Notes: generated by a model not told the origin, from the letters alone. Positions 741 through 31,914 are shown, numbered from the stretch's first letter. The stretch: DNA of 64,000 bases from Patescibacteria group bacterium (GCA_023474425.1 JAMCXX010000002.1:196217-260216), one strand, 5' to 3'. Translations and numbers: made by a program.

Positions 741-2189
741 TTAACCGAGGAACCCGCCGACCAGAGGAATCTTTCTGGCCACCTGTTGCACATCGGCCCC
801 GGCTCGGGAGACGGCGCCGGAGGCCTGTACTTCCAAAGCCTCTTCAATAATGGCCGGAACCTTAGAAGCAATGACCACCAATCCTAAGATAATAAAGTTT
901 TTAACATCGGTTTGCACCAGGGGGTCCGGTAAGGTGAAGCTGGATTCGTAATTGTTAATATAGACGGCGAGGTTGAGGATAAAAAATATTCCTGGGAAGA
1001 CCAGCACGTTGGCCAGCATCCCCATAATCCATTTTTTAATGTTGTCGTTTTGACTGGGAATAATACCAATGGCAATGAGCACCGGGCCAATGGCCGCTTT
1101 CACAAAAATTTGAGCATAGTTAGTAATTAAGGCAAAGAAAACCTGGAAGAAAATGTACCAGACCACGAGGCCCAAAATCATGGAGACCAGCCCGTCAATA
1201 ATGGGTATTTTAAAGGTGGGAGCGTTAAAGTCTAAATGCTGACCGACGGTAAAGAGTCCCATGGGGCTTTCCAAATACGGGTAGGGTAGGCACGGCGTCT
1301 GTATTAGAACGCAGGCCGGGCGGGAAAGATTGTTGAAGAAATAGCCAACGGTGGAAAGGCTTACCTGGCCAATGTCTACTACCAGCGAAGCAATAGTGTA
1401 GCTAAAAGCAATCATCAAAAGTCCAATAGCCAGTCGGGGAATAGCCGATTGCACGGTAATCACCGTACGTGGATCAATCTTTTGCCGAAGCATAACCATA
1501 AACCCATAAGCCACCAGAACGAGTGTAATCATTAAATAGGAAATGTTCCTGACCCCTTCCCAAATGCTAAAGATGGGGTTAAGCCGCACCCGACCGGGAG
1601 TGGCCGCGGCGGCGAAGGATGTTTTAAAGCCAAGAATGTTGCCATTAATCACTTCGGCCAGAGAGCTCATAGTGCCAAGATCCGGCGGGTTTTGGTAAAC
1701 GGCGGCCACCAGCTGAAAAGGGGCAATGCCAATTTTTTGTGGAATTTGCTGGTCAATGCGGCTGGACTGTGGATTGTAAGTAGTCGGGTCAATTCCCTGC
1801 CAAAGCAGGTTGCCCATACCCTGAAAGAAGGGGCTTAGAATGTATTTAAAAATTATGTCCCAGGAATTTTTGGAAAGCATAGTTAGGAAGTTATTGGCAA
1901 TTTGGCCTATGGCGTCGGTAATGCTTGAACCCAGGACGGTTAGTCCGTTATCAAGGGCATTGCACAAATCGCTAATGCCGGGGAGGCCGGAGACGCCGGA
2001 GCAGTCAATTGCGGCCAACTGTTGTGAGCTTAGGACTTTTGAGGGGAGTGTTTTTGATGCCGGCAATCTCTCGGCGGCGAGAATTTGTCGCCCGGAAAAA
2101 CTAAGAATAATCGTAGCGGCTAAGAGGCTAGCGGTTAGTTTGGTGTGGGACATTAAAATCATTTTGGGCAAGGCCTTATTTATTGTCAA
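741..2189 (-). CDS. polytopic membrane protein, possible VirB6/TrbL-like T4SS channel component
   Basis: 482-aa ORF with an N-terminal anchor (LTASLLAATIILSF) and many TM helices. It is divergent from the M23 giant gene and lies near eight T4SS-type pilin genes. Size and topology fit VirB6/TrbL, but no diagnostic motif could be verified by eye. Confidence 0.5.
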   Translation of the reverse strand: MTINKALPKMILMSHTKLTASLLAATIILSFSGRQILAAERLPASKTLPSKVLSSQQLAAIDCSGVSGLPGISDLCNALDNGLTVLGSSITDAIGQIANNFLTMLSKNSWDIIFKYILSPFFQGMGNLLWQGIDPTTYNPQSSRIDQQIPQKIGIAPFQLVAAVYQNPPDLGTMSSLAEVINGNILGFKTSFAAAATPGRVRLNPIFSIWEGVRNISYLMITLVLVAYGFMVMLRQKIDPRTVITVQSAIPRLAIGLLMIAFSYTIASLVVDIGQVSLSTVGYFFNNLSRPACVLIQTPCLPYPYLESPMGLFTVGQHLDFNAPTFKIPIIDGLVSMILGLVVWYIFFQVFFALITNYAQIFVKAAIGPVLIAIGIIPSQNDNIKKWIMGMLANVLVFPGIFFILNLAVYINNYESSFTLPDPLVQTDVKNFIILGLVVIASKVPAIIEEALEVQASGAVSRAGADVQQVARKIPLVGGFLG

Positions 2190-2219: not shown

Positions 2220-5200
2220 ATGCCCCTCGCCCAAAGTTACTCTTCAAATCCTCAAGCGAAAAGAAATCAGGATGTTGGCCCTTCTCCCTTTCAGCAGATG
2301 AGCTCGGCTTTCGCCGGCGCCTCGGCCAACCCTCTTCTGAAAGTAGCGCAATACACCGTTCTGCCGGCCGCCGAAAATATTCCCATTTTAGGCAAGCCTA
2401 TTACATTTCTTAAATGGGCCACCGACCCGGTGGGGGAGCTTAAAAAATCCCTCAATATTTCTCCTTCGGTGGGGGCCGCCGTCAAAGAATCAATTATCAC
2501 CAACGCCGTAGCTTACGCTACGAAAGTTTACGCGGTATCGGCGGGCGTTGCCTCCGGTCAGGGGCAGATTACCACCGATCTTGTACAAAACGCCATGGCC
2601 TGTGAAGCCGCCGATTACGCTACTAAAGCCGCGCGCAATCCTACCAAATTTATAATTCAGGAAACCTGGAACGGTCTTGTAAAGGGCGGCTGGTTTTTTG
2701 ACCGGTTTATTTACGATAAGCGTTATGTTTTTTGGCATGACGAAACCGGTAAGGCGTCCAAATGGGAAGCTAATCGCATCGCCAAGAAATTTGGATTGAA
2801 AGGCGAAGATTTAAGGTTCGGTTCCCAAGCCTTTAAGGTTATAAATGTTGACAAGCCGGGAGGCCTAACCCCGGTCTTAAAGGTCGGGAAGGTTACCTGG
2901 CAGATTGCCGGTCCCACTGTTCTGGCCGCCGTCCTCTTCCCCCCTCTCGCGCCGGTAGTTTTGGCCTGGCAGGTAGCTAACGCCAGCTGGAGCGACTTTG
3001 TCATCAAACATCCGGTAGTACCGGTTCCGCCCGACCCCAACTTGGTGGGCGCTCCTCTTGAGGCCGGCCGCAGCAAGGGCGGAAATAAGAATCTGCTTCG
3101 GGATGTTAATCGCGAATGGGTAGCCGAATCCAGCGGCCAGACTTTTAAGTGGTACGAACTCAACAATATTGCCGACGATAAGATTCGCCGTTGGAATAAA
3201 GTCTTTAAAACGGTTAACGATTTTGCCACCGTTCGTGGTCTTTATAATACCCTGGTTACCGGCAACACCTTGAAAGAAAGAGGCTGGGCAATTCGCGGTG
3301 GTTACGCCGACCAACGAATTCGCTTTGGCAGTGGCGCCGGTGAGATTAATGAACTATACGCCAGGGCCAGCGTTTTTAACCGTGGCCGCGGACGTCATTT
3401 TCACCCCGGGGTTTTAAGGAGGCCGGATGGAAGTGTAATCACAATCCATCCCGGTCAAAAGATTAGCGGCAAACAATGGAGCCACCTGTCTGCGTCGGTA
3501 AAATCCAACTCCAGTCGGTTTTTCCGCGGGGCCTACCGTTTTCAGCAATTTGCTTCCAAAATTGGAGTGCCAGCGGCTCTAGCCGTTCTTTTGCCCAACC
3601 CGGCCACTTGGGGTTTCGCCGCTTTTATGGTGGCACGGAATTTGGGAAGTGTTTTGGAGCCCTTAAAGTGGGTCGGCTGGAAGAGTGTTGAGTACACGAG
3701 TTCCCAGTTTATTGCCAAATACGGGTTAAAGTACGGCACGGCTGCGGTTAAGAATATTGGGCCGTTGGTTTTAGTCTTGGAAGATAATGGGACAAATTTT
3801 CTGCGCCGATGGCTCCGGCGTTTCTATTCGGTGCTGCATCCTTTTGACCGGGACGTTGGGGTTTTGGCTGGAGCCGTTGCTTGGCGGGATCGGCAATGGG
3901 CAACTATTGTCCGCTCCTTTTGGCGATCCAGCAATGGTTTGAGACTTAGGGCCACCTTTATTAAGTATCCCTGGATTCGGCAAACGTTTGATTTTCTAAA
4001 AAAACTGCCCGGAGCCGGAACCGTTGCCGCCGTCGGCGGATTTTTCTTAGGCGGACTTAAGTGGGTTTTGGCTCCCGGTCAGGCGATTAAAGATGCCGTC
4101 GGCAACTTTATAAAGTGGACGGCTTGGCGTGGTTTTCGCTGGGCCCTGGGTAAAGCGTTTCGGAGTTGGTTTAGCCATCCATTAACCGCCTGGCTACAAA
4201 GACAGGTTGCGAGTCTTCCAATCGGCTCCCTGCGCCGAAGTTTTTTTGATTTTCTTTTGCGCCGTCTTCTCGCCCCTGCACCCCTGCCAAAAATTCCCAC
4301 ATCGCCTCTGGGGAAATTCGGGGCCGAACTGGTTAAAGCTTTGGCTCAAATCGGAAAAATGATTTTCCGGTTTGTGACGAAGTTACTTATAGAGGCGGGT
4401 AAGGCGATTGTGAAAATTGTAGTCCAGGTCTTTCAAACCATTAGCGATGCCGTGGCGGCTGTTACCTCGCCGGCTTGGGGGACCGTGGCCGTCATAGTTG
4501 TGGCCATACTGGCAATCTTTCTGCTTCTGGCGCTTATAGTCATTGTCATTTTTCTGGCCTTGGCCTTTGTTTCTTCTATGGGAGCCAGCGGCACCAACAT
4601 GCCGCCCGTGAGCAGTTTTTTGGAGATACGCAAGGAGGTCGCCAACCCCAAGCCTTCCGGTCAGCTGTTTGCGGCGGGGGATACGGTTCAGTATTTAATT
4701 CAGTACGAAGTTAAGAAACCTCTTTCGGGAGCGGTTACTTTTGAAGACAGGTTTTTGATTAGCGGCGTCGATAAAAACGGTGCCACGGTTAAATATTTTG
4801 ACCAGAATTCCCTAAGTTGCCAGAGCCCGGCTTCCATTACTACCGTTACTTTTGCTTCCGATCCCGACGGCCCGCCCGGGAACTGGCAAGGGCTCAAGGG
4901 CACCGTTCCCTATCATGACCCGGGCAACGGCGGGCCGCAGTGGGTACAGTTTAACTGCTCGGCAAAAGTTGACTCCGGCTACAACGGCGGGGTTTTAGTT
5001 AATCACGCCATTATTTCCGGCAACGCCCAAAGCGACGGTAAACTTGTGACCGCCTCACAGTGGTTAAAGGTTAACGGCGGCGATGCTTCCGGCTGGCCCA
5101 CCGATCACGGCTGTTTTGTGCAGGGGCCAAACGGCGCTTATTCACACCAGAACCAGCAAGCGGTTGATATTGCCTCCAACTGGTCCTCCGGCTACAACAT

Positions 5201-5639
5201 TGCCGGCCAACCGATTCACGCCACCATTGACGGCAAAGTTTTAAGGATTTGTGTTAGTGGTACTTACAGCGCCAATGCTTCAACTGGTGTCTGCGGCGGT
5301 TACGATGAGGGGTCATACTTCGGGACCGGTTTCGGCACCTACGTTATTCTTAAAGAAACAAACACCAGTCTTTCCGTTTTTTACGGTCATCTTTTGCAAC
5401 CGTCTGCTTCTCTTGCCGAGGGGCAGATTATTAACAAAGGGGATATTATTGGTTATGTGGACTCAACCGGAAATTCAACCGGCAACCACGTGCACTACGC
5501 CTTCACGAGAAATTCCGGCGCCGAAATGAATCAGCCGTATGTTCCTTATTATGTGCCAACCTGTTCTCTAACATCACCTGACCCTACCTGCCCGCAGGCC
5601 TTTGCCGATTTGGGGGAGCCGGGCCGGGTCTGTTTTTAA
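2220..5639 (+). CDS. large membrane-anchored protein with C-terminal M23 (LytM-type) peptidase domain
   Basis: About 1140 aa from ATG 2220, with TTG 2211 as an alternative start. It has a central TM segment AWGTVAVIVVAILAIFLLLALIVIVIFLALAFV. The C-terminal M23 signature GDIIGYVDSTGNSTGNHVHYAF is preceded by SHQNQQAVDIA. Confidence 0.8.
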   Translation: MPLAQSYSSNPQAKRNQDVGPSPFQQMSSAFAGASANPLLKVAQYTVLPAAENIPILGKPITFLKWATDPVGELKKSLNISPSVGAAVKESIITNAVAYATKVYAVSAGVASGQGQITTDLVQNAMACEAADYATKAARNPTKFIIQETWNGLVKGGWFFDRFIYDKRYVFWHDETGKASKWEANRIAKKFGLKGEDLRFGSQAFKVINVDKPGGLTPVLKVGKVTWQIAGPTVLAAVLFPPLAPVVLAWQVANASWSDFVIKHPVVPVPPDPNLVGAPLEAGRSKGGNKNLLRDVNREWVAESSGQTFKWYELNNIADDKIRRWNKVFKTVNDFATVRGLYNTLVTGNTLKERGWAIRGGYADQRIRFGSGAGEINELYARASVFNRGRGRHFHPGVLRRPDGSVITIHPGQKISGKQWSHLSASVKSNSSRFFRGAYRFQQFASKIGVPAALAVLLPNPATWGFAAFMVARNLGSVLEPLKWVGWKSVEYTSSQFIAKYGLKYGTAAVKNIGPLVLVLEDNGTNFLRRWLRRFYSVLHPFDRDVGVLAGAVAWRDRQWATIVRSFWRSSNGLRLRATFIKYPWIRQTFDFLKKLPGAGTVAAVGGFFLGGLKWVLAPGQAIKDAVGNFIKWTAWRGFRWALGKAFRSWFSHPLTAWLQRQVASLPIGSLRRSFFDFLLRRLLAPAPLPKIPTSPLGKFGAELVKALAQIGKMIFRFVTKLLIEAGKAIVKIVVQVFQTISDAVAAVTSPAWGTVAVIVVAILAIFLLLALIVIVIFLALAFVSSMGASGTNMPPVSSFLEIRKEVANPKPSGQLFAAGDTVQYLIQYEVKKPLSGAVTFEDRFLISGVDKNGATVKYFDQNSLSCQSPASITTVTFASDPDGPPGNWQGLKGTVPYHDPGNGGPQWVQFNCSAKVDSGYNGGVLVNHAIISGNAQSDGKLVTASQWLKVNGGDASGWPTDHGCFVQGPNGAYSHQNQQAVDIASNWSSGYNIAGQPIHATIDGKVLRICVSGTYSANASTGVCGGYDEGSYFGTGFGTYVILKETNTSLSVFYGHLLQPSASLAEGQIINKGDIIGYVDSTGNSTGNHVHYAFTRNSGAEMNQPYVPYYVPTCSLTSPDPTCPQAFADLGEPGRVCF

Positions 5640-5642
5640 AAT

Positions 5643-6686
5643 ATGAACCAAAAATATTTTCGAATTTTTGCCGTCATAATTTTAATTTTGGTAATTGTGC
5701 TTTTGGCGTTCGATTTTTTTAGAAGTCGTAGTCCCTCCGTCCCGAATCAGGGAGGAACGACGCCGCCCGGCGTGGCGGCACCCACAGTTAATCAGGCAAT
5801 ACCCTATACGCCACAGCGGGTTAACGTGCCATCCAATGTCAATTATCAAAATCTACCCAAAACTCTGCCCGTCTATTCCGTTGCCGGAGATGCTGCGCGC
5901 CCGTTTACGTCTTTAGAGATTTCCTCTCTGGCTTCGATTTTAGGCTTTAAGTCAGCCGCCCAAATTATTCCCGGTTACGGCGGGGGCTCTAATTATATGT
6001 ATGGTGACGCCGCCGGCCGGACCTTAATAGTTAAGGATGCGCCCCCGAGCATTAGCTACTCGGAGCCGCCGGCCACCGGCCCTTTTACCTCTCTGCCGTC
6101 TTTGGACGAAGCTTCGTCTTTTTCTCTTTCGTGGTTTAGGAAGCTTTCTATAAATTTGCCTGACGGATGGGAAGTAAGAGTTATAAAGAAAGTTTATATA
6201 AGCGGTGAGGGTTCTTCGGCGGTGGAAGTTCCCGATGTCTCTCAAGCCGGTTCGGTTAGTGTGAACTTGGGATATTTTTATGGAGGCTTGGAAGTTTATG
6301 ACGGCACGCGGGGGCCGGTTTTGTTTAGTTTAGTCATTGGGCCAAATATGACCATTATTTCCGCTAAATCCGCTTTCTTGGTAACCAACTCCGGTTTAGC
6401 AATTTCTCCGGTTGGCAATGTGGCGGTAAAGGATTTAGCCGGAATCGAGAATTCGTTTTCCGACGGGTCGGCCAAGGCTATCTCGTTGGGCCTTTCCGGA
6501 GTAATAACCGACGAACCGATTCTTAACCCGCCGCAGACGGTTGATGTTAAAAATATTTCTCCAGTTTTACTGCTTTCGGGAAAAACCCTTTACCCTTATT
6601 TTTCCGTTTCCGCCCAAGGGACTTTGAGTTCTGGTAGAACTGGGGAAGTTCAATATTTGGTTCCGGCCGAAAGCGCTGAACCTTAG
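5643..6686 (+). CDS. hypothetical N-terminally anchored exported protein
   Basis: 347-aa ORF starting 4 nt after the stop of the M23 gene, which suggests translational coupling. It has an N-terminal TM helix FRIFAVIILILVIVLLAFDFF. No family recognised. Confidence 0.6.
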   Translation: MNQKYFRIFAVIILILVIVLLAFDFFRSRSPSVPNQGGTTPPGVAAPTVNQAIPYTPQRVNVPSNVNYQNLPKTLPVYSVAGDAARPFTSLEISSLASILGFKSAAQIIPGYGGGSNYMYGDAAGRTLIVKDAPPSISYSEPPATGPFTSLPSLDEASSFSLSWFRKLSINLPDGWEVRVIKKVYISGEGSSAVEVPDVSQAGSVSVNLGYFYGGLEVYDGTRGPVLFSLVIGPNMTIISAKSAFLVTNSGLAISPVGNVAVKDLAGIENSFSDGSAKAISLGLSGVITDEPILNPPQTVDVKNISPVLLLSGKTLYPYFSVSAQGTLSSGRTGEVQYLVPAESAEP

Positions 6687-6713: not shown

Positions 6714-7211
6714 TTACTTGTATTGGCAGAGACCGCCGATTACAGGCAAGCCGCCGTTTGTGCAGGCGTAGTCAGGTATCATTAAGATTGGGTTTGGTAG
6801 ACCAAGAACGTTGGTAGAAAGCACCGTGATTAGAAAGACGGATGCGATGCCTAGACCAAAACCCATCAAGGCGGCAGTCATAGTCTTTTGAGCCGATTGA
6901 ATGGCTTTCTCGTCTCCACCGGAAGTTAGGTATCGTAATCCACCGTAAAGAAGCATCGCAAAAAGCCCTATTCCCAGAAGAATGAGGATAGAGAAGTAAA
7001 GTTTATAAGCAATACTTACTAGGCAATAGAATCCCATCCCCGTACCCACACCACCTACAACCGGCCCGGAAATGTCCCTTGGCTGGTCGCAGGTATAAAG
7101 GTTGAAACCCCCAACGTTTTCCTGTGTCAAAGCGAGGGTGTTGGGTCCGGTAAGCAGAAAAATCAGTGCAACCAGTGCCAGAAAAGTCAAGGCTGTTTTT
7201 TTCAAGCTCAT
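6714..7211 (-). CDS. TrbC/VirB2-type (T4SS) pilin-like protein, paralog 8
   Basis: 165 aa with a signal peptide. The core is GGLRYLTSGGDEKAIQSAQKTMTAALMGFGLGIASVFL, flanked by two TM helices. The same motif occurs in seven neighbouring genes. Confidence 0.7.
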   Translation of the reverse strand: MSLKKTALTFLALVALIFLLTGPNTLALTQENVGGFNLYTCDQPRDISGPVVGGVGTGMGFYCLVSIAYKLYFSILILLGIGLFAMLLYGGLRYLTSGGDEKAIQSAQKTMTAALMGFGLGIASVFLITVLSTNVLGLPNPILMIPDYACTNGGLPVIGGLCQYK

Positions 7212-7237
7212 ATTTTTTGGGAAAGGTCAAAATATCC

Positions 7238-7639
7238 TTACTGTCCCAGTGTCGTGGTGGGACCGGGCCACTGAATGTTGCCCAAAATATTCACCCCGAA
7301 GACCGCGCCCAAAACCTGGATAACAGCAATGGAACCGGCCACAATGGCCAAACCCAAAATGGCGTAAGTGATCCGGTCACGGGCCGATTGGGCTGCGACT
7401 TTGTCTCCGCCCGAGGTTAAATATTGAAAGCCTCCCATAACCAGGAAAATAAATGCGGCCAGGCCGGAAATAATAATAATAGCCCTCACCAAAGTCTGAA
7501 TAAAACTGCCCAGGTCTGGGAAGGCAAACAAAGTAGTGTCCACCCTTCCGGAGGTGTAGGCAGCCAGAGCGGCCGGGGCAACCAAAGATAAGAGCGTTCC
7601 TGCCGTCATTGCAATTTTAATTATTTTATTTTTTCTCAC
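7238..7639 (-). CDS. TrbC/VirB2-type pilin-like protein, paralog 7
   Basis: 133 aa with core GGFQYLTSGGDKVAAQSARDRITYAILGLAIV and C-terminus VFGVNILGNIQWPGP. Confidence 0.75.
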   Translation of the reverse strand: MRKNKIIKIAMTAGTLLSLVAPAALAAYTSGRVDTTLFAFPDLGSFIQTLVRAIIIISGLAAFIFLVMGGFQYLTSGGDKVAAQSARDRITYAILGLAIVAGSIAVIQVLGAVFGVNILGNIQWPGPTTTLGQ

Positions 7640-7724
7640 TCAGGTTCACCCCCTTTGAATCTTCTTAGATTTATCATTAACTATTAAGCTTAACACAACA
7701 CGTTAAGTAGCGCCAGAGTAAATT

Positions 7725-8075
7725 TTACGGGGCGCCCACGGTAGTATTAGCCGGCCCGGGCCATTTTATGTCGCCGAGAATATTTATGCCAAAAACAGCC
7801 GCCAGGATTTGGGTAATAGCCACCGCGGCCACAATAATAACCAGGCCCGTAATCGCGTAGGTAATGCGCTCGCGGGCGTTTTGCGCCGCCACCTTATCCC
7901 CGCCGGAGGTGAGGTACTGGAAACCGCCGATTAAAAGAAAAACAAAAGCGGCCAGGCCGGCAATAATCATGAAGCCGCGTAGGAAAGTTTGAATAATTTC
8001 GCCTAGATTAACAAAAGAAACGGATCCTGTGTCGATGCCGGGGATTAATGTTCCGGGATTGGCGGCTAGAATCAT
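7725..8075 (-). CDS. TrbC/VirB2-type pilin-like protein, paralog 6
   Basis: 116 aa with core GGFQYLTSGGDKVAAQNARERITYAITGLVII and C-terminus VFGINILGDIKWPGP. Confidence 0.75.
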   Translation of the reverse strand: MILAANPGTLIPGIDTGSVSFVNLGEIIQTFLRGFMIIAGLAAFVFLLIGGFQYLTSGGDKVAAQNARERITYAITGLVIIVAAVAITQILAAVFGINILGDIKWPGPANTTVGAP

Positions 8076-8078
8076 AGT

Positions 8079-8474
8079 TTAGTGACAATAACCATAATTA
8101 CCCACAATCGTGTCGGCCGTAGGCCATTTAATATTACCAAAAATATTGACACCAAAAACAGCTCCCAGAATTTGGGTGATGGCCACCACCGAGACAACGA
8201 TGGCCAAGCCCATTATGGCATAGGTAATTTTCTCGCGGGCGTTTTGCGCCGCCACCTTATCCCCGCCGGAAGAGATGTACTGAAAGCCGCCCAAAACCAG
8301 TTGAACCAGAGCAAAAATTCCGGAAATGATTATGACGGCGTTAATTAAAACGCTTAAAAGATTGCCTATATTGGCAAAGGCCACAGCGTCGCCGGCGGCG
8401 GTGGAAACAAACTGCGAGCAGTCCACCCCCGGCACAGCCGCGAGAACTATGTTAGAGAATATCATAGAGAGCAA
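8079..8474 (-). CDS. TrbC/VirB2-type pilin-like protein, paralog 5
   Basis: 131 aa with core GGFQYISSGGDKVAAQNAREKITYAIMGLAIV. It shares a 39-nt identical DNA stretch with paralog 6. Confidence 0.75.
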   Translation of the reverse strand: MLSMIFSNIVLAAVPGVDCSQFVSTAAGDAVAFANIGNLLSVLINAVIIISGIFALVQLVLGGFQYISSGGDKVAAQNAREKITYAIMGLAIVVSVVAITQILGAVFGVNIFGNIKWPTADTIVGNYGYCH

Positions 8475-8488
8475 ATACAGCCGATCTC

Positions 8489-8893
8489 TTACGCTGATTT
8501 AGAACGCAGATCGGGATTGACTATTCTCTTGATTATAACTCCATTTGGACTGAAAATCGAGACAATTCCTAATCTCAACTTGGCATCACGGAGATAAGAA
8601 AGTACCTGACGCATCTGATTGTGATAAAAACCATTTCCGACTTTTACTTCGAGTATTAACCTATTATTGATTAAAAAATCGTGAAAGTAGTAGCCAATAA
8701 CTCTGTCCTTATATCTGATTTTTGAAATGTTTTCTTTGGTAAATTCAAGGCCTCCGGCTTTCAGCTCGTTGGAGATAGCTTTTTGATATATCTTTTCCGG
8801 GTAACCGAAACCTAGGTCGTTGAAGACTTTATATAAACAGCCAATAACTTTATAACTTAAATCGGCGAATGGGAAGTCTTGTTTCTCTTCCAT
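8489..8893 (-). CDS. GxxExxY family protein (PD-(D/E)XK-like fold)
   Basis: 134 aa. The N-terminus YKVIGCLYKVFNDLGFGYPEKIYQKAISNELK carries the G-x-x-E-x-x-Y signature (GYPEKIY). The gene is embedded in the pilin array on the same strand. Confidence 0.7.
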   Translation of the reverse strand: MEEKQDFPFADLSYKVIGCLYKVFNDLGFGYPEKIYQKAISNELKAGGLEFTKENISKIRYKDRVIGYYFHDFLINNRLILEVKVGNGFYHNQMRQVLSYLRDAKLRLGIVSIFSPNGVIIKRIVNPDLRSKSA

Positions 8894-8926
8894 CTGCTTT
8901 CCAGATCTGCTTGAAAGATTTGCTGT

Positions 8927-9262
8927 CTAGGGATGGGGCCAAAGGACGCCGCCCACAATGCTCACGCCAAAAACGGCCTGAACCACAAAGCCTACGGCAT
9001 AGGCGCCTACCACAATAGCCAGGCCCATTATAGCGTAGGTGATTTTGTTGCGGGCCGCTTCCACCGCCACCTTGTCTCCACCGGATGAGATGTATTGGAA
9101 CCCGCCCATGGCCAAAAACAGAAAGGCGGCAATGCCGGAAACAATCACCAGCGTCACATAAAGATTGGCCACCAGACGCCCAACGTCAAGGTACCCGAGC
9201 TTGTTAACGCCGGAGGTTTCGAGTGATTCGAGAGTTGATAAATCAAAAGATGTTGACGGCAT
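8927..9262 (-). CDS. TrbC/VirB2-type pilin-like protein, paralog 4
   Basis: 111 aa with core GGFQYISSGGDKVAVEAARNKITYAIMGLAIV. Confidence 0.75.
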   Translation of the reverse strand: MPSTSFDLSTLESLETSGVNKLGYLDVGRLVANLYVTLVIVSGIAAFLFLAMGGFQYISSGGDKVAVEAARNKITYAIMGLAIVVGAYAVGFVVQAVFGVSIVGGVLWPHP

Positions 9263-9271
9263 GATTTATAT

Positions 9272-9607
9272 TTAGGGACCCCTAAAGACCGGTTTAAAAA
9301 TGTCAATTCCCAAAACGGTCCCAACAATTCTGGTAATTGCAAAAGCGCCTACCACAATAGCCAAACCAATCACGGCGTTGGTAATCTGCTTCATGGCCTC
9401 CTGGGTCTGCTTGGCATCGCCGCCGGCGGTAATGTAGCGCAGTCCGCCTAAAGCCAGGTAGAGAAAGAAGGCAATCCCGGACACAATAATCACGACGTTA
9501 ATAAAGTTAGAAATGAGATAAGACAGACCACTACCTCCAGCAGTATAGTTTCCAGTTAGATATTTCGGATCGATTGTTCCGAAGATAGGTACAAATAGTA
9601 TATCCAT
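9272..9607 (-). CDS. TrbC/VirB2-type pilin-like protein, paralog 3
   Basis: 111 aa with core GGLRYITAGGDAKQTQEAMKQITNAVIGLAIV. Confidence 0.7.
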   Translation of the reverse strand: MDILFVPIFGTIDPKYLTGNYTAGGSGLSYLISNFINVVIIVSGIAFFLYLALGGLRYITAGGDAKQTQEAMKQITNAVIGLAIVVGAFAITRIVGTVLGIDIFKPVFRGP

Positions 9608-9611
9608 GATG

Positions 9612-9926
9612 TTAAAACCCGGTAATACTTATGCCTAGGACGGTTTCCACAATTCTGATTATCCAAAAAGAAATAAATACGATAATCATTCCGATTACGG
9701 CATTAGTAATAATTTTTCTGGCTTCCATTAATGCCTTATCATCTCCGCCCGAGGTGAGATATTTTATTCCGCCGAGGAGCAGATAGGCAAAGAGAGCTAG
9801 GCCGGCCAGAGAAATAATCACCGGTAAAAAAGCGCTTACGACCGAGCCTAAGTCGTTGAATCCGGAGAGACCCAAAGCGCTGGGTGTAATCGCGAAAGCC
9901 AAGGCCTCTTTGCCAAAAATGTTCAT
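9612..9926 (-). CDS. TrbC/VirB2-type pilin-like protein, paralog 2
   Basis: 104 aa with core GGIKYLTSGGDDKALMEARKIITNAVIGMIIV. Confidence 0.7.
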   Translation of the reverse strand: MNIFGKEALAFAITPSALGLSGFNDLGSVVSAFLPVIISLAGLALFAYLLLGGIKYLTSGGDDKALMEARKIITNAVIGMIIVFISFWIIRIVETVLGISITGF

Positions 9927-9931
9927 AATTC

Positions 9932-10522
9932 TTAAGGATAAGGTACGTTAACTCCCCCTCCGGGAGCCGGCGTGAAACCAGGGATGTGTAAAATATCTAT
10001 ACCAATAAATCTTAAAAGAAAAACGCTTAAAAAGACAAGCAGGAAACCGCCGATGGCGTGAGTAATGGTGCTCTTGGCCTCATCAATGGCGTCGGGGTTG
10101 CCGCCACTCAAAAGATACTTGGCTGCGCCGGATATAAGCAGAAACAAACTGACGCCGCCGGCCAATCCGGACATAATTAGTATAAGAGCTTTTATGAGTT
10201 CCTCGGGTTGCGGTTTTAAGGTGCCGATTTCCGTGTTCAGTTCCGTTGGCAGCGGTTGTGGTGCCGGAATGTTAAGGCAAGTATAGCCGTCAATAATATT
10301 GGCATTTCCCGCTTGAAGAAACCCACAGTTAATGCATTGTTTGCCGTTGGTGGAGCAGGCAGGCTGCGGACATCTCCCTGGCCAGCCGAGCCCCTGACCG
10401 TACGAACCGCAGGCCGCTTCGAAGTTTACTGCTTTAGTTATGGAGGGAGCGCTTACCCAGGAAGTTGCAGAAAACAGGATGGCTATTAATATTTGCCAGA
10501 GCAACAAGCGTTTCTTTACCAC
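9932..10522 (-). CDS. pilin-like protein with Cys-rich N-terminal extension, paralog 1 (first gene of the array)
   Basis: 196 aa with a signal peptide. A roughly 90-aa region with 8 Cys (CGSYGQGLGWPGRCPQPACSTNGKQCINCGFLQ...YTCLN) precedes the pilin core GAAKYLLSGGNPDAIDEAKSTITHAIGGFLLV. Confidence 0.65.
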   Translation of the reverse strand: MVKKRLLLWQILIAILFSATSWVSAPSITKAVNFEAACGSYGQGLGWPGRCPQPACSTNGKQCINCGFLQAGNANIIDGYTCLNIPAPQPLPTELNTEIGTLKPQPEELIKALILIMSGLAGGVSLFLLISGAAKYLLSGGNPDAIDEAKSTITHAIGGFLLVFLSVFLLRFIGIDILHIPGFTPAPGGGVNVPYP

Positions 10523-10580
10523 GATTCAACTTTACCTTTTTCGCGCCATTTCTGTCAAAAAATCGGGGGCGGGGCAATGT

Positions 10581-10593: not shown

Positions 10594-12333
10594 ATGAAAA
10601 GTGCTTGGGCTTTCCTTGCGGCCATTCTTTTGCTTATTCCTCTCCTATTTATAATCCGCCCGGCTTTGGCGGATGAATACTCCGATTTGCAGGCCCAGCT
10701 GGACCAAAAGATTAAAGAGCTTTCGGCCAAACAGGGGGAGCTGGCCGGAGTTCAGTCGGAGCACCAAAAAGTTTCCGTGGATGTGGCCGCCACCCGCAAT
10801 TTAATTGACCGCACCGCCGCCGAAATCGAAAAGAAAAAAGAGGAAATTGCCCGGCTTGATTCACAGCGGCAGACCAAAGAGCTAGAACTTTCGCAAAAAG
10901 AAGCCACCGTTTCCGCCATGATAAAAGAAATTTACAAAAGTTCGGCCGGGTCTTCTCTGGAATTAATTCTTAGCAGTCAAAGTTTGGGTTCTTTTGCCCA
11001 AAGCCTCGTCTATTACAAAGCGGTGGCGGCTCTCGCCGAACAAAAGGCCAACGACTTGGGGGCCCAAGTTACCCAAATTAAGGTCAATTTAATTTCCGAC
11101 CGGGACAAAAAAGATGCGCTTGACGCCCAGGTGTTAAGTCTTGCCCAAAAGAAAAAAATTTTAGACTCACAGCTTTCCGCTTTAAGCGGGCACATTCAGA
11201 CCGTCAGTTCCCAAATTTCCACCATTCAAACGGAGATTGCCAATATTACCGCCCGCCAGCAGCAGATTTTGGCCGAGAAGACCGGCAACTTTTTAACCAG
11301 TGTTGGTGATGTGCCGCCGGCCGACGACCCGGCCTCGCGTCTTGATTACAATCCCGGTTTTTCCCCCGCCTTCGCCGGTTTTTCCTTCGGTGCGCCGCAC
11401 CGCAAGGGTATGAGCCAGTACGGCGCCTACGGGCGGGCCAAGAGCGGACAGAATTATCAGGATATTCTTAAAGGTTACTACGGCAGTGTGAGTATTGAGC
11501 ACCGCGATTTACCGGGCAGCATTCAAACGACCGTGGGCACAATCTCTTTTGAAGACAACTACCTCATGGGCATTGCCGAAATGCCGTCGAGTTGGGCCGA
11601 CAGCGGCGGTTATGAAGCGCTAAAAGCCCAGGCGGTGGCAGCCCGCAGTTATGCTATGAATGCCGGCAAGCCTATTTGCGTTACCGAGAGTTGCCAGGTT
11701 TATTCCTCTTCAAAGGCGGCCAATCCGCCCGACGCCTGGCGGCGGGCGGTTAACGAAACCCGTGGGCAGGTGGTGGTGGCCAACGGGCAGATTCTTTCCA
11801 CCTGGTATGCCTCCACTTCCGGCGGATTTAATTTGTCCTACACCGTGGGCGGCTACACGACTTCCGGAGGATGGGATACCAAGTGCGGTAGCCAGAGCTG
11901 TTGGACGGGCGACGCTTACGAAAAGATTTCCGGCTCCCCGTGGTTCTACAAAGCCTGGTACCGACCCCGTTACGGCAGTGCCAGCCGTTCTAACCCTTGG
12001 CTTAACCGCGACGAATTTGCGGATATTGTAAACTCGGCGCTTCTATACCAAAAAGATAACGGTACGGTTACACATCTTTCCCAGACGGATAAGTCCAACC
12101 CCGATACATGGAGTGCGGATCAAGTGCGGGGGGCCTTGAGCGGTGACGCTATTTCCAATGTCACATCAGTTTCCGTTACCTATTCAACCGGCGGTTTTAC
12201 GAGTAACGTCCATCTGGAAACGGATAAGGGCGGCAAAGACATTGATGGGCCAACCTTCCGGCAAATCTTTAACCTTCGGGCGCCGGGAGAAATCTGGCTG
12301 GCGTCTTCGTTATTTAATATAGAAAAGAAGTAG
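10594..12333 (+). CDS. SpoIID/LytB domain protein with N-terminal coiled coil
   Basis: 579 aa with a signal peptide and a roughly 200-aa heptad-rich region (LQAQLDQKIKELSAKQGELAGVQSE...). The SpoIID signature YEALKAQAVAARSYA is followed by ASTSGG. Confidence 0.75.
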   Translation: MKSAWAFLAAILLLIPLLFIIRPALADEYSDLQAQLDQKIKELSAKQGELAGVQSEHQKVSVDVAATRNLIDRTAAEIEKKKEEIARLDSQRQTKELELSQKEATVSAMIKEIYKSSAGSSLELILSSQSLGSFAQSLVYYKAVAALAEQKANDLGAQVTQIKVNLISDRDKKDALDAQVLSLAQKKKILDSQLSALSGHIQTVSSQISTIQTEIANITARQQQILAEKTGNFLTSVGDVPPADDPASRLDYNPGFSPAFAGFSFGAPHRKGMSQYGAYGRAKSGQNYQDILKGYYGSVSIEHRDLPGSIQTTVGTISFEDNYLMGIAEMPSSWADSGGYEALKAQAVAARSYAMNAGKPICVTESCQVYSSSKAANPPDAWRRAVNETRGQVVVANGQILSTWYASTSGGFNLSYTVGGYTTSGGWDTKCGSQSCWTGDAYEKISGSPWFYKAWYRPRYGSASRSNPWLNRDEFADIVNSALLYQKDNGTVTHLSQTDKSNPDTWSADQVRGALSGDAISNVTSVSVTYSTGGFTSNVHLETDKGGKDIDGPTFRQIFNLRAPGEIWLASSLFNIEKK

Positions 12334-12908: not shown

Positions 12909-13124
12909 ATGACAAGTTTTGACCCTTACATTATTCTTTCCGTTCGTTGGGGTTTGGTGACCCTGCTTTCCCTTTACGCCGTTTTTTCGGCAGTCATGAT
13001 AAGCAAAGTGCGCTACCTTTCCGGAGTTTTGGAAACCGAGGTTTCTCCTGCTTTGTCCGTCCTGGTTTTGCTTAATTTTGTTTTCTCTTTATTTTTAATC
13101 GTTCTAACGTTGGTAACAATATAA
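12909..13124 (+). CDS. small two-TM membrane protein
   Basis: 71-aa ORF packed tightly between neighbours (5-nt and 1-nt gaps), with two hydrophobic helices. Confidence 0.5.
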   Translation: MTSFDPYIILSVRWGLVTLLSLYAVFSAVMISKVRYLSGVLETEVSPALSVLVLLNFVFSLFLIVLTLVTI

Positions 13125-13125
13125 A

Positions 13126-14979
13126 ATGGAAAAGAAGTTGACCATACGTTTTCAAAAACTTGTCGGCCAGGCGGCATTTCCGCCGGGATTTTTTGCCGAG
13201 GGTCAAAAGTTCGAACGTTTCGAGAAGGGTTTGCCCCAGTCGCGCGGCTCGCTTTTTTGTCTTCTGACCATTAAAGGGCCGGCCGAAGGCTTTGAGGCGC
13301 CGGTTTTTGGCAAGGCCATTTTAGATGTTTTGGAGGAGGAGTACTTTACGCCTTCGTCGGAGCCGCCTCTTTCGGCTCTGGAGAAAGCGGCCGACTCGGC
13401 CCACCGCCGGCTTAACGACCTGGCGCTTTCCTCACACCTGGGGCAGGCTCTGGAGCTTGACTTGGTGTTGGCCGTTCTTTGGGGACAGGTGCTCTATGTT
13501 TGCCGTCTGGGGCAGGGCGGCGCCTATTTATTGCGCGACGGCAAGGTCTCGGAGATTATTTTGGGGGAGGAGTCCCTGGTTGCCTGCGCTTCCGGTTTTG
13601 TTTACGGCGGCGACACTCTTATTTTGGGCAGTCCAGATTTTAAAAAGAAATTCCCGACGGAATCTCTTTCGCTCTCGCTCGGGAAAATTGAGCAGGCCAT
13701 GCAGGAGAGCGGCCCCAAATCTCTTTTGGCCGGTTTAGTTATAAAACTGGACTTGGAGGAATCTCCGGGGGAGGCCGAGTCTATTGAGTTTGTTGAGCCT
13801 CATCGGCCCTCTTCCCGCCGTCCCAAAATTTCTCTGCCAAGGCTTCGCCCGCCTTCTCTGGAGGTTTTCAGGGCGCGGCGTTTAGGGCGTAAGAGCCGAA
13901 TGGCCGGACTTTTCCTTGCTCTCTTAATTCTTTTTTCCGTCTCGGTTTACTTTACCATTTCCCGCCAGAACAAAATCCGTTTGGCCAACCTTTCCCAGGT
14001 CGTTTACAACAAAGCCGATTTGGACCTGATTTCGGCCTCCGACCTGGTCAATCTTAACAATGCCAAAGCGGCCCAAATTTTAAATGATACTTTAAAGTCC
14101 CTCAAAAATTTAGAGTCGTTGGGCTCCAAAGACCCCAAACTTTTTGACTACGAACAGAGGGTTAAATCACTCCTGGCCAAGGTTTCGGGGGAAACTTTGG
14201 TGCAAAACCTAAAGCTTATCTACGATTTTAACCTTTCCGAAAACGGGCTTAGGCCGAGCAACCTGGAGGGTTATAAAAATCAGTTGATTCTGGGCAGTCA
14301 GGGTTCCGGGGCCGTCTTTGCCGTACCGGCCGATAATCCAGCTGGCGCCCAAAACGTTTCCGGCGGAAAAATCAGCTCCCTTAAAGAAATTTCGGCCTAC
14401 GGCAGCCGGGTTTTTGTGGAAAGTAGCGGCGGCTTTTATACCATTGATTTAAGCAGCGGCAGCGTCACGGCCGACGATTTGAGCGGCTTGAACCCGGATC
14501 AGATTGCCGACTTTGGAAGCTACAATTCCAATCTCTACTTTCTATCTCCCTCGCAAAACCAGATTTTACGGTCCCTCTACGGTACGTCCGGTTACTCGCC
14601 TGTTTCAAGCTGGCTTAAGAGTCCGGCCGTTATTAAAAATGCCCTCAATTTTGCCATCGACGGCGATATTTATGTGCTGCTTTCGAGCGGCCAGGTGCTT
14701 AAATTCGAAGGCGGCGAAGCCCAGGATTTTGGCTTGAGCGGTTTTAGCCAGACTTTAAGTAAACAAACTTTTATTTACACCACCGATTCACTAAACTTTC
14801 TCTACCTCGTTGACCGGGAAAACAAGAAAATTGTAACCTTCGACAAAAACGGCGTTTTCCAAAAGACTTACGATTTGAGCGGCAGCGGCTTGCCCTCTCT
14901 CGATTCTCTTTATGTAAACTCCGATAACTCCAATCTCTACGTTCTTTCCGGAACTAAGATTTACGTCCTAGCCCCTTGA
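13126..14979 (+). CDS. PP2C-like (catalytically degenerate) domain - TM - beta-propeller-like repeat protein
   Basis: 617 aa. The N-terminal part resembles PPM phosphatases (VLYVCRLGQGGAYLLRDGKVSEI, GDTLILGSPDF) but lacks the GDSR aspartate. It has a TM helix MAGLFLALLILFSVSVYFTI. The C-terminus has repeated LYxL/IYVL strand motifs. Confidence 0.45.
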   Translation: MEKKLTIRFQKLVGQAAFPPGFFAEGQKFERFEKGLPQSRGSLFCLLTIKGPAEGFEAPVFGKAILDVLEEEYFTPSSEPPLSALEKAADSAHRRLNDLALSSHLGQALELDLVLAVLWGQVLYVCRLGQGGAYLLRDGKVSEIILGEESLVACASGFVYGGDTLILGSPDFKKKFPTESLSLSLGKIEQAMQESGPKSLLAGLVIKLDLEESPGEAESIEFVEPHRPSSRRPKISLPRLRPPSLEVFRARRLGRKSRMAGLFLALLILFSVSVYFTISRQNKIRLANLSQVVYNKADLDLISASDLVNLNNAKAAQILNDTLKSLKNLESLGSKDPKLFDYEQRVKSLLAKVSGETLVQNLKLIYDFNLSENGLRPSNLEGYKNQLILGSQGSGAVFAVPADNPAGAQNVSGGKISSLKEISAYGSRVFVESSGGFYTIDLSSGSVTADDLSGLNPDQIADFGSYNSNLYFLSPSQNQILRSLYGTSGYSPVSSWLKSPAVIKNALNFAIDGDIYVLLSSGQVLKFEGGEAQDFGLSGFSQTLSKQTFIYTTDSLNFLYLVDRENKKIVTFDKNGVFQKTYDLSGSGLPSLDSLYVNSDNSNLYVLSGTKIYVLAP

Positions 14980-14994
14980 AAAAAACGTCTTTTT

Positions 14995-15438
14995 ATGCTA
15001 AAATACCTAGTTGAAAATAGGGAAATCGGCGCGATGGCCCCACGCTATAAGGTGGAGGCGGGCTTGGTTTTAACCGGGGCTGAAGCCAAGTCGCTTAAGG
15101 CAGGAAACGGAAGGTTAAACGGCGCCTATCTTAAAGTTTTTAGCGACGGGGCTTACCTAGTGGGTTTTAGAATCGGCCGCTACCGGTACGACGCCAGGGC
15201 GGCACAGAACCCCACACGCCTGCGCAAAGTTCTTTTAAATAAAAGGGAGCTTTTAAAAATCGCCGGCCTTATTTCCCAAAGAGGTTTTGTCTGTGTGCCC
15301 TCGAGGGTTTATCTTAAGGACCGATTTATAAAAGTGGAGCTTGTGGTTGGGCAGGTTTTAAGAAAGTGGGAGAAGCGGGAGAAAGAGAAGGAAAAAGAGC
15401 AGGCGCGGGAAGTTGAAAGAAGCTTGAGTGAGTATTAG
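14995..15438 (+). CDS. smpB: SsrA-binding protein SmpB
   Basis: 147 aa. The sequence aligns by eye to SmpB (EAGLVLTGAEAKSLKAGNGRLNGAYL ... TRLRKVLLNKRELLKI) and has a basic C-terminal tail. It lies immediately upstream of the tmRNA. Confidence 0.9.
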   Translation: MLKYLVENREIGAMAPRYKVEAGLVLTGAEAKSLKAGNGRLNGAYLKVFSDGAYLVGFRIGRYRYDARAAQNPTRLRKVLLNKRELLKIAGLISQRGFVCVPSRVYLKDRFIKVELVVGQVLRKWEKREKEKEKEQAREVERSLSEY

Positions 15439-15465
15439 GATGTGGTGTTAGCACATTTAAAATTT

Positions 15466-15850
15466 GGGGATGTCAGTTTCGACTAAATGCGGATGAAACT
15501 TCGGCAAGTCAAGTTTGAGCCAGATCTTGGTAAAAAGGCTTAATTAAAATGCCACCGATAGTGTGAGCGAAGTTCCCGTTTACGAGCCAGCTTTTGTCTA
15601 CGCTTGAAACGTGAACCGTCCTTAAAAGCTTTCCCCAGACGAGGCTTTTTTGGGCGTGTAACAGTCTGGGATTCAAGTTTTGCGGGTTTTGGGCAAACCC
15701 GATTCTTGTAATCATCTAAATTGTCCAGCCGGTTGGCTTTTATCCCGGTCTAGCCGAGAGGCCCGCCCGGATTTATTTAAGCTAGATAAGCTTGTAGATG
15801 AAGTTTCTTGATTCATTTAGGACCCCCGTTCAATCGGGGCATCTCCACCA
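15466..15850 (+). ncRNA. ssrA: tmRNA (SsrA)
   Basis: The 5' end GGGGATGTCAGTTTCGAC pairs with the 3' end CATCTCC-A-CCA, giving an acceptor stem with the G3:U70 alanine identity pair. A T-arm CCCCG-TTCAATC-CGGGG is present. Length is 385 nt, directly downstream of smpB. The candidate tag ORF is 15551-15607. Confidence 0.9.
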
Positions 15851-27464: not shown

Positions 27465-27535
27465 GGTTAAATGTTATAATTATGGTCGAAGACATTAATA
27501 TTCCGGTGTAGCTCAGTGGTAGAGCGAGCGCCTGT

Positions 27536-28073
27536 AGAACTTTGACAACCGCCTGGATTAAGCTAAAATAGACCTGATGGCGAAAGAAAACCGAAAGTAT
27601 AAAGATAGAGCCTCATACATGGTTGCCGCCGTTTCCAAGAGGCGAAAGCGCTTAAAGGAGATGGCTATTAAGCTTAAAGGATCGAAATGCAACTTTTGTG
27701 GCTATAGTCGGTGCGTTGGTGCTCTTGAGTTCCACCACATCAATGAGGGAACCAAGAACTTTGACCTCTCCACTCGAGGACTTACACGCAGTTGGGACAA
27801 GATCAGAGAAGAACTTAAAAAATGCATTTTAGTCTGCGCTAATTGTCATCGGGAAATCCATAGCGGTTTACTGCAGCTTCCGAAGGTAACTTCGGTTGAA
27901 AAATTGGGTGAACTGTCGGGAAGCCTAAATTCCGTTTAGCCGGAACAGGGTAATCCGCAGCCAAGTCCCGACGCAACGGTCGGGAAAGGTTCAGAGACTA
28001 TGCGCCCAATCCCGAAACGTAAAGTCGCCGGGAAAGAGATAGTCCAAGCCTTAAAGAAATTTAGGGGCACTTG
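27536..28073 (+). mobile_element. group I intron in the tRNA anticodon loop
   Basis: Conserved core elements are present: Q-like AATCCGCAGCCAAGTCC (27952-27968), R GTTCAGAGACTA (27989-28000) and S AAGAGATAGTCC (28034-28045). R and S give the GACTA/TAGTC P7 pairing. With this register the 5' exon ends in U and the intron ends in G. The intron contains an HNH ORF. Confidence 0.75.
27577..27939 (+). CDS. HNH endonuclease (intron-encoded, putative homing endonuclease)
   Basis: 120 aa with CNFCGYSRCVGALEFHHINEGTKNFDLS...LVCANCHREIHSG, the HNH pattern CxxC...HH...N...CxxCHxxxH. It lies wholly inside the intron. Confidence 0.8.
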   Translation: MAKENRKYKDRASYMVAAVSKRRKRLKEMAIKLKGSKCNFCGYSRCVGALEFHHINEGTKNFDLSTRGLTRSWDKIREELKKCILVCANCHREIHSGLLQLPKVTSVEKLGELSGSLNSV

Positions 28074-28206
28074 TAAGCGCTGCGTCGCAGGTTCGAATCC
28101 TGCCACCGGAGCCATAAACCACTCACTTCGTTCGCTCATGGCTATAGCCATCGAGTAAAAACGAAGGGAGTCGAATGTGCTGAGCGAAGTCGAAGCACTA
28201 CCCTTT

Positions 28207-28393: not shown

Positions 28394-28947
28394 TAGGCGC
28401 CGAAAACGTTTAATTGGCGAACGGTACTCATACACCCCTTTTTTGTTGCTGGTCTTGAATCAAGTATCTTTACTACGTCGTTCCCAAACTTTGAATAGAA
28501 CAAGCAAAATGAGAGAAAAGCCGATAAAGAAAATTGTAACAGATGACAATTCGGTCAGATTTGGGCAATCAATGAACCGTCAGGAAAAGCAATTGACAGG
28601 TCGTGATTCGTAACCGGGGTTTAAGTAATTTAATGTTAGTAATAAGAAAAACGGTATGGATAGAACCCAAACGGTAACGATTATTTTCTGTGTTGTGCCC
28701 ATAAACACTTAGGTATTGTTTAAACAAAAGAAGCAACAACCATCGTTGCTATCGGCGGTCGAGCTTAAAGACTTACGCACGGGTTGCCCCTTCGTATCTT
28801 GAAGTCCTGCGAATAAACGCTTTTGCGGGCGGATTAAGTTGTGAATATATTTTAACTTGTTAGTTTTAGATTATCAACGGCAATTAAGCAGGTGTGTAGC
28901 GAACGATTGCGAGATCTGACCTTATAGTGCTATCGTGTCTATGCTTT

Positions 28948-31534: not shown

Positions 31535-31600
31535 TAATATTATTATAAACCGAAGACTTTACGAAGGTCAAGGGGTATTTATTTAGGGGTGAGGAAAATT

Positions 31601-31912: not shown

Positions 31913-31914
31913 CC

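Follow-up and report, generated by a model that had tools for sequence, protein, structure and literature searches.

We analyzed a 64,000-nucleotide (nt) stretch of DNA from a Patescibacteria bacterium (GCA_023474425.1 JAMCXX010000002.1:196217-260216; hereafter the window) and found that eight genes on its minus strand, between positions 6714 and 10522, probably form a VirB2-like (PF18895) pilin array of a chromosomal, origin-proximal type IV secretion system (T4SS) of the monoderm (MPF-FATA-like) type. We put the probability of this reading at about 0.7; there is good support for identifying the genes as the pilin-like array of a Patescibacteria T4SS. The genes encode proteins of 104 to 196 amino acids (aa) and are numbered here in transcriptional order, from p8 down to p1 (Table 1). 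A preliminary description of this DNA had given their number, strand, and coordinates as we found them and had called them consecutive; a 134-aa gene of the GxxExxY/PD-(D/E)XK type lies between the fourth and the fifth pilin genes and splits the array 4+4. The origin in the Candidate Phyla Radiation (CPR) that it had assumed agrees with the NCBI source label, "Patescibacteria group bacterium."

All eight proteins matched the Pfam family PF18895 (T4SS_pilin), with E values from 1.7e-11 to 2.5e-4; five of them scored above the gathering score of 26.6 bits (29.0 to 44.5 bits) and three below it (26.3, 24.4, and 21.5 bits). The profile searches thereby placed them in a T4SS pilin family, which is very large (91,012 representative clusters), and not in an unrelated family. 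A hidden Markov model (HMM) built from the eight sequences recovered the same eight open reading frames (ORFs) and no others in the 64 kb, with E values from 3e-49 to 5e-32 (9e-43 for p5), a detection far beyond chance. We also found weak matches of all eight proteins to NF045849 (NCBIfam; Mbov_0395, a pilin-like conjugal transfer protein of integrative and conjugative elements [ICEs] of Mycoplasma), which span the whole hairpin described below (E values from 1.4e-7 to 0.13, every score under the 40-bit family cutoff). One of the proteins, p3, is identical to an NCBI entry named "MAG: pilin [Patescibacteria group bacterium]."

We then examined the sequences of the eight proteins. Amino acid identity among them averages 38%, with a maximum of 60% (p2/p3) and a minimum of 25%, and their alignment contains 13 invariant columns. 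In every copy, a conserved loop, GG-x-x-Y-x-x-x-GG-D/N, separates two long hydrophobic segments. The longer core motif initially proposed for all of them holds in its strict form for five (p3 departs from it by one residue, p1 and p8 by several) and in a relaxed form for all eight. An AlphaFold2 model of the 116-aa p3, made with 58 family sequences, consists of a helix-loop-helix hairpin (H24-56 and H61-95) with a predicted local distance difference test (pLDDT) value of 93 to 96 in the core, which bears out the two transmembrane helices described before. Hydropathy and the AlphaFold2 model thus agree with the VirB2-type layout of two hydrophobic helices, a short polar or charged loop, and about 100 to 130 aa. 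The tie to VirB2/TrbC is indirect and comes from this hairpin fold, from the genomic context, and from family members that pass both PF18895 and the TrbC/VirB2 model PF04956, namely P0057, a phmmer match of p3 (62 bits and 36.3 bits, respectively, with a cutoff of 27.9 for the latter), and P0092 (263.6 bits and 144.6 bits).

Alignment and pairwise comparison both confirmed that the parts outside the hairpin diverge strongly, as had been described. The first protein, p8, starts with a signal-peptide-like N terminus, followed by an ectodomain, roughly 80 aa long, that contains six cysteines (positions 38, 51, 56, 63, 66, and 82) and then by the pilin hairpin, and has three hydrophobic segments in all. 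The last, p1, combines a signal-peptide-like N terminus and a hairpin with four cysteines (positions 41, 63, 150, and 162) in its exposed N- and C-terminal parts. By hydropathy, a signal-like hydrophobic N terminus is present in p1, p2, and p8, weak in p4, and absent from p3, p5, p6, and p7.

We next looked for the machinery of a T4SS. In agreement with the preliminary description, the window has no VirB4 or VirD4 among its ORFs of at least 380 aa. A public contig with identical genes (L010; window position = 7899 minus L010 position) reaches 9.1 kb beyond window position 1, and there we found, 5.9 kb before position 1 and on the same strand as the pilin genes, a VirB4-like ATPase of 647 aa. 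It matches the VirB4-like CD1110 family NF045971 (E value of 1.5e-115, 387 bits, cutoff of 325), which is of the monoderm type, as well as P-loop_TraG (E value of 1.5e-30) and NF045975, and its nearest named relatives are from candidate division WWE3 and Shapirobacteria (70 to 74% identity). The same contig encodes, again on the pilin strand, a PrgI/VirB3-like protein of 597 aa (PF12666, 34.6 bits, gathering score of 27) and a TrsD-like protein of 230 aa, which matches NF041427 with an E value of 2.7e-9 (under the 200-bit cutoff) and the N-terminal region of VirB4 with an E value of 1.9e-14; dnaN comes after these three genes. VirB4 and p3 are both found on one NCBI contig of 278,831 bp labeled "Patescibacteria group bacterium," where VirB4 is the eighth coding sequence (CDS) from p1, at a distance of 12.6 kb and within the 20 CDSs used as a limit in PMC12102498. 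The T4SS ATPase for which the preliminary description had suggested a search is therefore present, eight genes from the array and just beyond the left edge of the window.

The genes between VirB4 and the array encode proteins of 893 aa (no family match), 269 aa (a membrane protein, likewise with no family match), 473 aa, 1139 aa, and 347 aa. The 1139-aa protein, which is syntenic in a close relative (1184 aa), carries an M23 peptidase domain and is by its sequence a candidate for a VirB1-type role in opening the cell wall; VirB1-type proteins with M23 domains have been reported from Patescibacteria T4SS loci (PMC12102498). The AlphaFold2 model of the 473-aa protein, for which 11 homologues were detectable, is of low confidence (pLDDT of 55). 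Its six best Foldseek matches in the PDB are all chains of the R388 T4SS stalk (TrwJ/VirB5-TrwI/VirB6; E values from 0.026 to 0.62, best probability of 1.00), in which we take the VirB6 label to be that of entry 7O3V. These matches hint that the protein may be a divergent VirB6-like platform, of a type missed by profile searches in some Patescibacteria classes. On the other side of the array lies a gene for a protein with a SpoIID/LytB domain, of the peptidoglycan lytic transglycosylase type, which adjoins the array in all three related genomes that we compared (see below). In the same three genomes it is followed by genes for a 71-aa DUF5657 membrane protein (12909 to 13124, plus strand) and a membrane protein of 617 aa whose outer domain is rich in repeats (13126 to 14979, plus strand); both may be part of the same envelope module as the array. 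The 617-aa protein was also considered as a hidden ATPase and rejected, as it is a membrane protein of the kind just described and has no P-loop.

We found no evidence that the array came from a mobile element: it does not differ in GC content from its surroundings and has housekeeping genes (smpB, tmRNA, dnaG, rpoD, and dnaN) as neighbors. At positions 14995 to 15850 on the plus strand, smpB is immediately followed by a full-length tmRNA gene (15466 to 15850, 86.5 bits); this ordinary pair confirms that the array lies in a chromosomal housekeeping setting.

Table 1. Positions in the window of the pilin-like genes, their neighbors, and a promoter-like site
Feature	Position	Strand	Description
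Secreted polytopic membrane protein	741..2162	-	473 aa; no Pfam or NCBIfam matches; 11 detectable homologues
M23 membrane protein	2220..5639	+	1139 aa; C-terminal peptidoglycan endopeptidase domain, Peptidase_M23, E 4e-12
Conserved syntenic protein	5643..6686	+	347 aa; between M23 protein and array; no Pfam or NCBIfam matches; 342-aa gene at this place in L014
p1	6714..7211	-	165 aa; last gene of array; PF18895 E 3e-5, 24.4 bits
p2	7238..7639	-	133 aa; signal-peptide-like N terminus; PF18895 E 1e-6, 29.2 bits
p3	7725..8075	-	116 aa; recent duplicate of p2; best PF18895 match, E 1.7e-11, 44.5 bits
p4	8079..8474	-	131 aa; central subfamily; Cys 19 and 130; PF18895 E 1.1e-6, 29 bits
GxxExxY/PD-(D/E)XK_3 (PDDEXK_3) gene, non-pilin	8489..8893	-	134 aa; PF13366 E 8e-26; TIGR04256 E 4e-26
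p5	8927..9262	-	111 aa; pilin-like hairpin protein; PF18895 E 2.5e-4, 21.5 bits
p6	9272..9607	-	111 aa; pilin-like hairpin protein; PF18895 E 1.8e-8
p7	9612..9926	-	104 aa; pilin-like hairpin protein; PF18895 E 8e-6, 26.3 bits
p8	9932..10522	-	196 aa; first gene of array; PF18895 E 4e-7, 30.4 bits
Promoter-like site TTGACA-18-TAAAGT	10529..10558	-	directly upstream of p8; 10/12 consensus match
SpoIID/LytB coiled-coil protein	10594..12333	+	579 aa; divergent from array; SpoIID E 3e-15; TIGR02669 99.9 bits, above cutoff

A contig search with an alignment of four of the paralogues yielded five loci. Arrays of three to five copies were found in loci from Doudnabacteria, Saccharibacteria, and Taylorbacteria, and we compared the window in detail with a close relative (L014) and a more distant one (L005), using score matrices and a neighbor-joining tree. 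L014 has the same gene order from smpB to the M23 protein and past it, with SpoIID and seven pilin genes in between; in L005, SpoIID is followed by six pilin genes. We found that p8, p7, p6, p5, p4, and p1 each pair with the L014 gene of the same rank and that most of them also pair with the L005 gene of the same rank. The partners of p8 (R14_1 and R05_1) likewise have long Cys-rich N-terminal domains, those of p7 are R14_2 (76% identity) and R05_2, and those of p6 are R14_3 (73% identity) and R05_3, while p5, p4, and p1 pair with R14_4 (70% identity), R14_5, and R14_7, respectively. The remaining two genes, p3 and p2, are lineage-specific duplicates of a single L014 gene (R14_6). The conserved order is a first gene with a long Cys-rich head, two distinct short types, the central subfamily, and a last gene whose product has a signal-like N terminus and cysteines, and the change in copy number across the three genomes is confined to the central subfamily, with one copy in L005, two in L014, and three in the window. 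Between orthologues, the hairpin is 62 to 80% identical for p2 to p7 (45% for p1), versus 23 to 65% for the N termini. As synonymous sites were saturated even in the closest orthologues (pS of 0.63 to 0.98), the ratio of nonsynonymous to synonymous substitution rates (dN/dS) on the exposed segments is unusable; estimates for the hairpins only, from four orthologue pairs (five comparisons), were about 0.06 to 0.14. In these comparisons, the paralogues prove to be ancient, with orthology that follows position in the three related genomes.

The junction after the fourth pilin gene differs among the three genomes. It holds the GxxExxY/PD-(D/E)XK gene in the window (8475 to 8926), a gene for a PF05635 "23S rRNA intervening sequence protein" (23S_rRNA_IVP, a four-helix bundle) in L014 (9019 to 9563), and no gene in L005 (9868 to 9949). 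This junction appears to be an insertion hot spot for small, possibly selfish genes within a conserved operon.

Within the array, the intergenic gaps measure 3 to 26 nt, with one of 85 nt, and a Shine-Dalgarno-like GGGGGTG precedes p2. This spacing and the promoter-like site before p8, which may be the promoter of the array, are consistent with a single operon as far as the sequence allows. The start of p3 lies 3 nt past the stop of p4, and p3 lacks the signal-peptide-like N terminus that is seen in its duplicate p2 and in their shared orthologue R14_6 (L014, 10001 to 10402); p3 may be a truncated or a translationally coupled copy. Short-read assemblies from two independent runs end inside p3 and p4, the most similar paralogues, at window positions 7898 (L001/L002) and 8241 (L003/L004), which indicates that pilin arrays are likely fragmented and undercounted in metagenome assemblies.

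In other organisms, we found single polypeptides that contain 2 to 17 tandem pilin hairpin modules (P0058, P0092, P0124, and others). P0058 (L012, 1777 to 3435) has 6 modules in 552 aa and is located within an array of single-module pilin genes, and P0092 (L013, 950 to 4393) has 11 modules and a soluble tail in 1147 aa. The fused genes are stop-free in the standard code and lie within pilin arrays. Two or more modules were present in 147 of the 150 top-scoring representatives of the family, in a ranking that favors multimodule proteins. We found no mention of such fused proteins in the study of Patescibacteria T4SSs in PMC12102498.

We propose that each pilin-like protein would insert with both ends outside the membrane and with the conserved charged loop inside, a topology that fits the even numbers of cysteines in the exposed ends of p8, p1, and p4. 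The VirB4 ATPase would then extract the proteins from the membrane, and they would polymerize on a VirB6-like platform into one mixed filament or conduit, which would pass through the wall, locally opened by the flanking hydrolases, toward a host cell. The central paralogues could serve as bulk subunits and the products of the first and last genes as specialized (tip, adhesive, or base) subunits. Taken to its full extent, this proposal holds that the T4SS filament or conduit encoded by the array of this monoderm is a single ordered structure, obligately heteromeric, with subunit classes that are fixed and are not variants of one another: a Cys-rich head encoded first, two distinct short types, a bulk subfamily expanded by duplication, and a distinct last subunit. 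The fused "polypilin" polypeptides of 2 to 17 modules would be the extreme of the same heteromeric logic. We advance this fuller version tentatively, as a possibility with the odds against it. If true, an ordered heteromeric array would introduce an architectural principle new to VirB2-type pili and would give a handle on the essential role of the CPR T4SS at the host interface.

Several observations weigh against a T4SS pilin array as we read it. The TrbC/VirB2 model PF04956 (threshold of 27.9 bits) was not reached directly by any of the eight proteins, with p6 as the sole match (12.5 bits, E value of 0.18), so that the original designation as TrbC/VirB2-type pilins is supported only by the indirect links given above. 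Family profiles matched no solved pilin among the PDB sequences. A Foldseek search of the PDB with the hairpin model gave no match at an E value of 0.001 or less (best E value of 2.1); the conjugation pilin of Aeropyrum pernix (8dfu) came at rank 11 (E value of 3.3, TM scores of 0.49/0.65), amid unrelated helical hairpins, and no decisive structural match was obtained because the hairpin fold is too simple. Four of the eight copies (p3, p5, p6, and p7) have no signal-like segment at the N terminus. We found no report in the literature of the polymerization of any PF18895 protein, and no PF18895 pilus has been observed; T4SSs of the Gram-positive (monoderm) type are normally without a pilus (PMC12102498, PMC10633639), and the thin filaments that have been solved from a CPR bacterium are immunoglobulin (Ig)-like Pam pili, not hairpin pilins. 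The ORFs of at least 380 aa in the window and the 9 kb upstream, approximately 73 kb in all, yielded neither a type IV coupling protein (T4CP/VirD4) nor a relaxase, the pair that marks a conjugative, DNA-transferring T4SS. Finally, the promoter call is a consensus match only, and the region contains 7 such sites versus 5.4 expected from shuffled sequences; since this count is not above expectation, we treat the site as a lead. A 2026 preprint on a "novel pilus system in CPR" was also considered and proved to be unrelated, as it concerns an Ig-like pilus.

The array might also be a repertoire of alternatives, in which interchangeable surface-exposed subunits are used one or a few at a time and permit a change of host range or the evasion of hosts or phages. 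The virB2 paralogues of Bartonella and Anaplasma have been suggested to act as such a repertoire (cited in PMC12102498), and the idea is raised for Patescibacteria in that study. It is favored by the exposed N and C termini, which diverge much faster than the hairpin, and by the variable number of central subfamily copies among the three genomes. However, the genes are closely packed on one strand, and within the array we found no internal promoter or terminator signals above background and no invertible or cassette-like repeats. The copies are 64 to 74% identical at the nucleotide level and thus give no sign of ongoing gene conversion. Moreover, most of the paralogues are older than the split of the three genomes and have kept their order, which points to fixed and distinct roles, and fused multimodule proteins force coexpression. 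Because of this ancient, order-preserving paralogy and of the fused polypeptides, we favor fixed subunit roles and consider a variant repertoire unlikely.

A slimmer chance falls to a structure that is associated with the T4SS and is not a filament, namely, a hetero-oligomeric assembly that lines or rings the translocation channel within the membrane, in a role nearer to that of the small membrane proteins known from Gram-positive conjugation. This would accord with monoderm T4SSs that have no pili, with the fact that a VirB2-type filament has never been seen in CPR, and with the half of the copies that have no cleavable signal-like segment; up to 11 to 17 fused hairpins (22 to 34 membrane helices) resemble a membrane complex rather than a pilus subunit. 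The paired cysteines and large head domains on the exposed ends nevertheless suggest an extracellular function, some family members pass the TrbC/VirB2 pilin model, and the two wall-degrading enzymes that flank the array fit a wall-crossing structure. In addition, the linkers of the fused modules would all lie outside and would be sterically compatible with neighboring subunits of a helical pilus. That the eight are unrelated small membrane proteins with two helices (holin-like or immunity proteins, for instance), with a merely coincidental likeness to pilins and location, is highly improbable. The two-helix hairpin is indeed a fold of low information, and the structural search was without a significant match, but all eight proteins match one curated family, the neighborhood of the array is a T4SS locus conserved in several genomes here and found in 1,135 assemblies in PMC12102498, and the weak NCBIfam matches are to Mbov_0395, the pilin-like family of Mycoplasma ICEs.

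The reading of the eight genes as a T4SS pilin array agrees with published work, and the novelty implied by the preliminary description does not stand, as the same architecture and the speculations on its function have already been published (PMC10633639, PMC12102498, PMC12857230) and NCBI names one of the copies "pilin." Wang et al. (2023; PMC10633639) reported an essential series of predicted pilins in the T4SS cluster of "Ca. Southlakia epibionticum," a Saccharibacterium (region SEML1_0006 to SEML1_0019), and pointed out that a coupling protein and a relaxase were absent. In a survey of 3,035 Patescibacteria genomes with PF18895 and PF04956, Quinonero-Coronel et al. (2025; PMC12102498) found 441 arrays of 2 to 11 VirB2-like genes, either directly in tandem or interrupted by a non-pilin gene. 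Those arrays are often near virB4, TrsD, PrgI, and dnaA/dnaN, have a low internal identity (mean of 25%, maximum of 54%), and were proposed to provide host-range versatility. The idea of a pilus conduit was repeated in a 2025 review.

The present locus, with eight pilin-profile genes and one interloper, falls under the definition of an array in PMC12102498 (two or more genes that match a pilin profile, adjacent or with one non-pilin gene between them). It does not differ in kind from the other Patescibacteria arrays (PMC12102498; "Ca. Southlakia epibionticum"; TM7x), which share the PF18895 family, the diverged tandem copies, the possible interruption by a non-pilin gene, the proximity to virB4, TrsD, PrgI, and dnaN/dnaA, and the lack of a nearby relaxase. 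Its eight copies are in the upper part of the published range, and its mean and maximum identities are somewhat above the published values, in a loose comparison given that the alignment methods differ. The VirB2/TrbC pilins of PF04956 (the Agrobacterium T-pilus, RP4 TrbC, and F TraA) are likewise small, with two helices and a short charged loop, and encoded with VirB3 and VirB4 homologues, and some PF18895 members pass their model. In contrast, the proteins of the window miss PF04956, match no solved pilin in sequence, come in eight copies instead of one, and belong to a monoderm host without an outer-membrane complex. The virB2 paralogues of Bartonella, Anaplasma, and Rickettsia (cited in PMC12102498) show the same tandem amplification and divergence, in a T4SS for host interaction and not for conjugation, but belong to diderm intracellular animal pathogens with an MPF-T system, and the ancient, ordered paralogues found here are unlike their rapid variation. 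The Mbov_0395 family of Mycoplasma ICEs shares the weak whole-hairpin likeness, a wall-less/monoderm host, and a related type of VirB4 (NF045975), whereas its gene is single copy and on a mobile conjugative element and the array is chromosomal.

Few machines have been shown to be essential to a cultivated Patescibacterium in its epibiotic lifestyle, and the T4SS is among them; the pilin series sets the Patescibacteria T4SS apart from all other monoderm T4SSs. The locus is one more well-preserved example and does not change the published picture; our small additions to it are the positional orthology, the apparent insertion hot spot at one junction, and the fused multipilin proteins. It also provides a clean reference case, with the array, hydrolases, candidate VirB6, PrgI, TrsD, VirB4, and dnaN on one contig.

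Two other features of the window were observed far from the array. A tRNA gene with a group I intron of 538 nt is located at 27502 to 28114 on the plus strand (Rfam RF00028, 83 bits at 27858 to 28066). It was missed by a default tRNA scan and was assigned by ARAGORN, with introns allowed, to tRNA-Asn(GUU), with an uncertain splice site and identity; the intron region contains an ORF of 120 aa (27577 to 27939) with an HNH-like CxxCH motif, judged by eye. Further on, a 630-aa ORF (29642 to 31534, minus strand) joins a LexA DNA-binding domain to an S24 self-cleaving peptidase and an N6/N4 DNA methyltransferase, and is adjoined by genes for an MvaI/BcnI-type restriction endonuclease (28927 to 29649) and an AAA_15/AAA_21 ATPase (31915 to 33453). 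The GC content is 0.39 to 0.41 in the stretch of approximately 28 to 36 kb, versus about 0.48 elsewhere, and positions 28927 to 33453 look like an acquired restriction-modification or defense island with an unusual LexA-methylase fusion.

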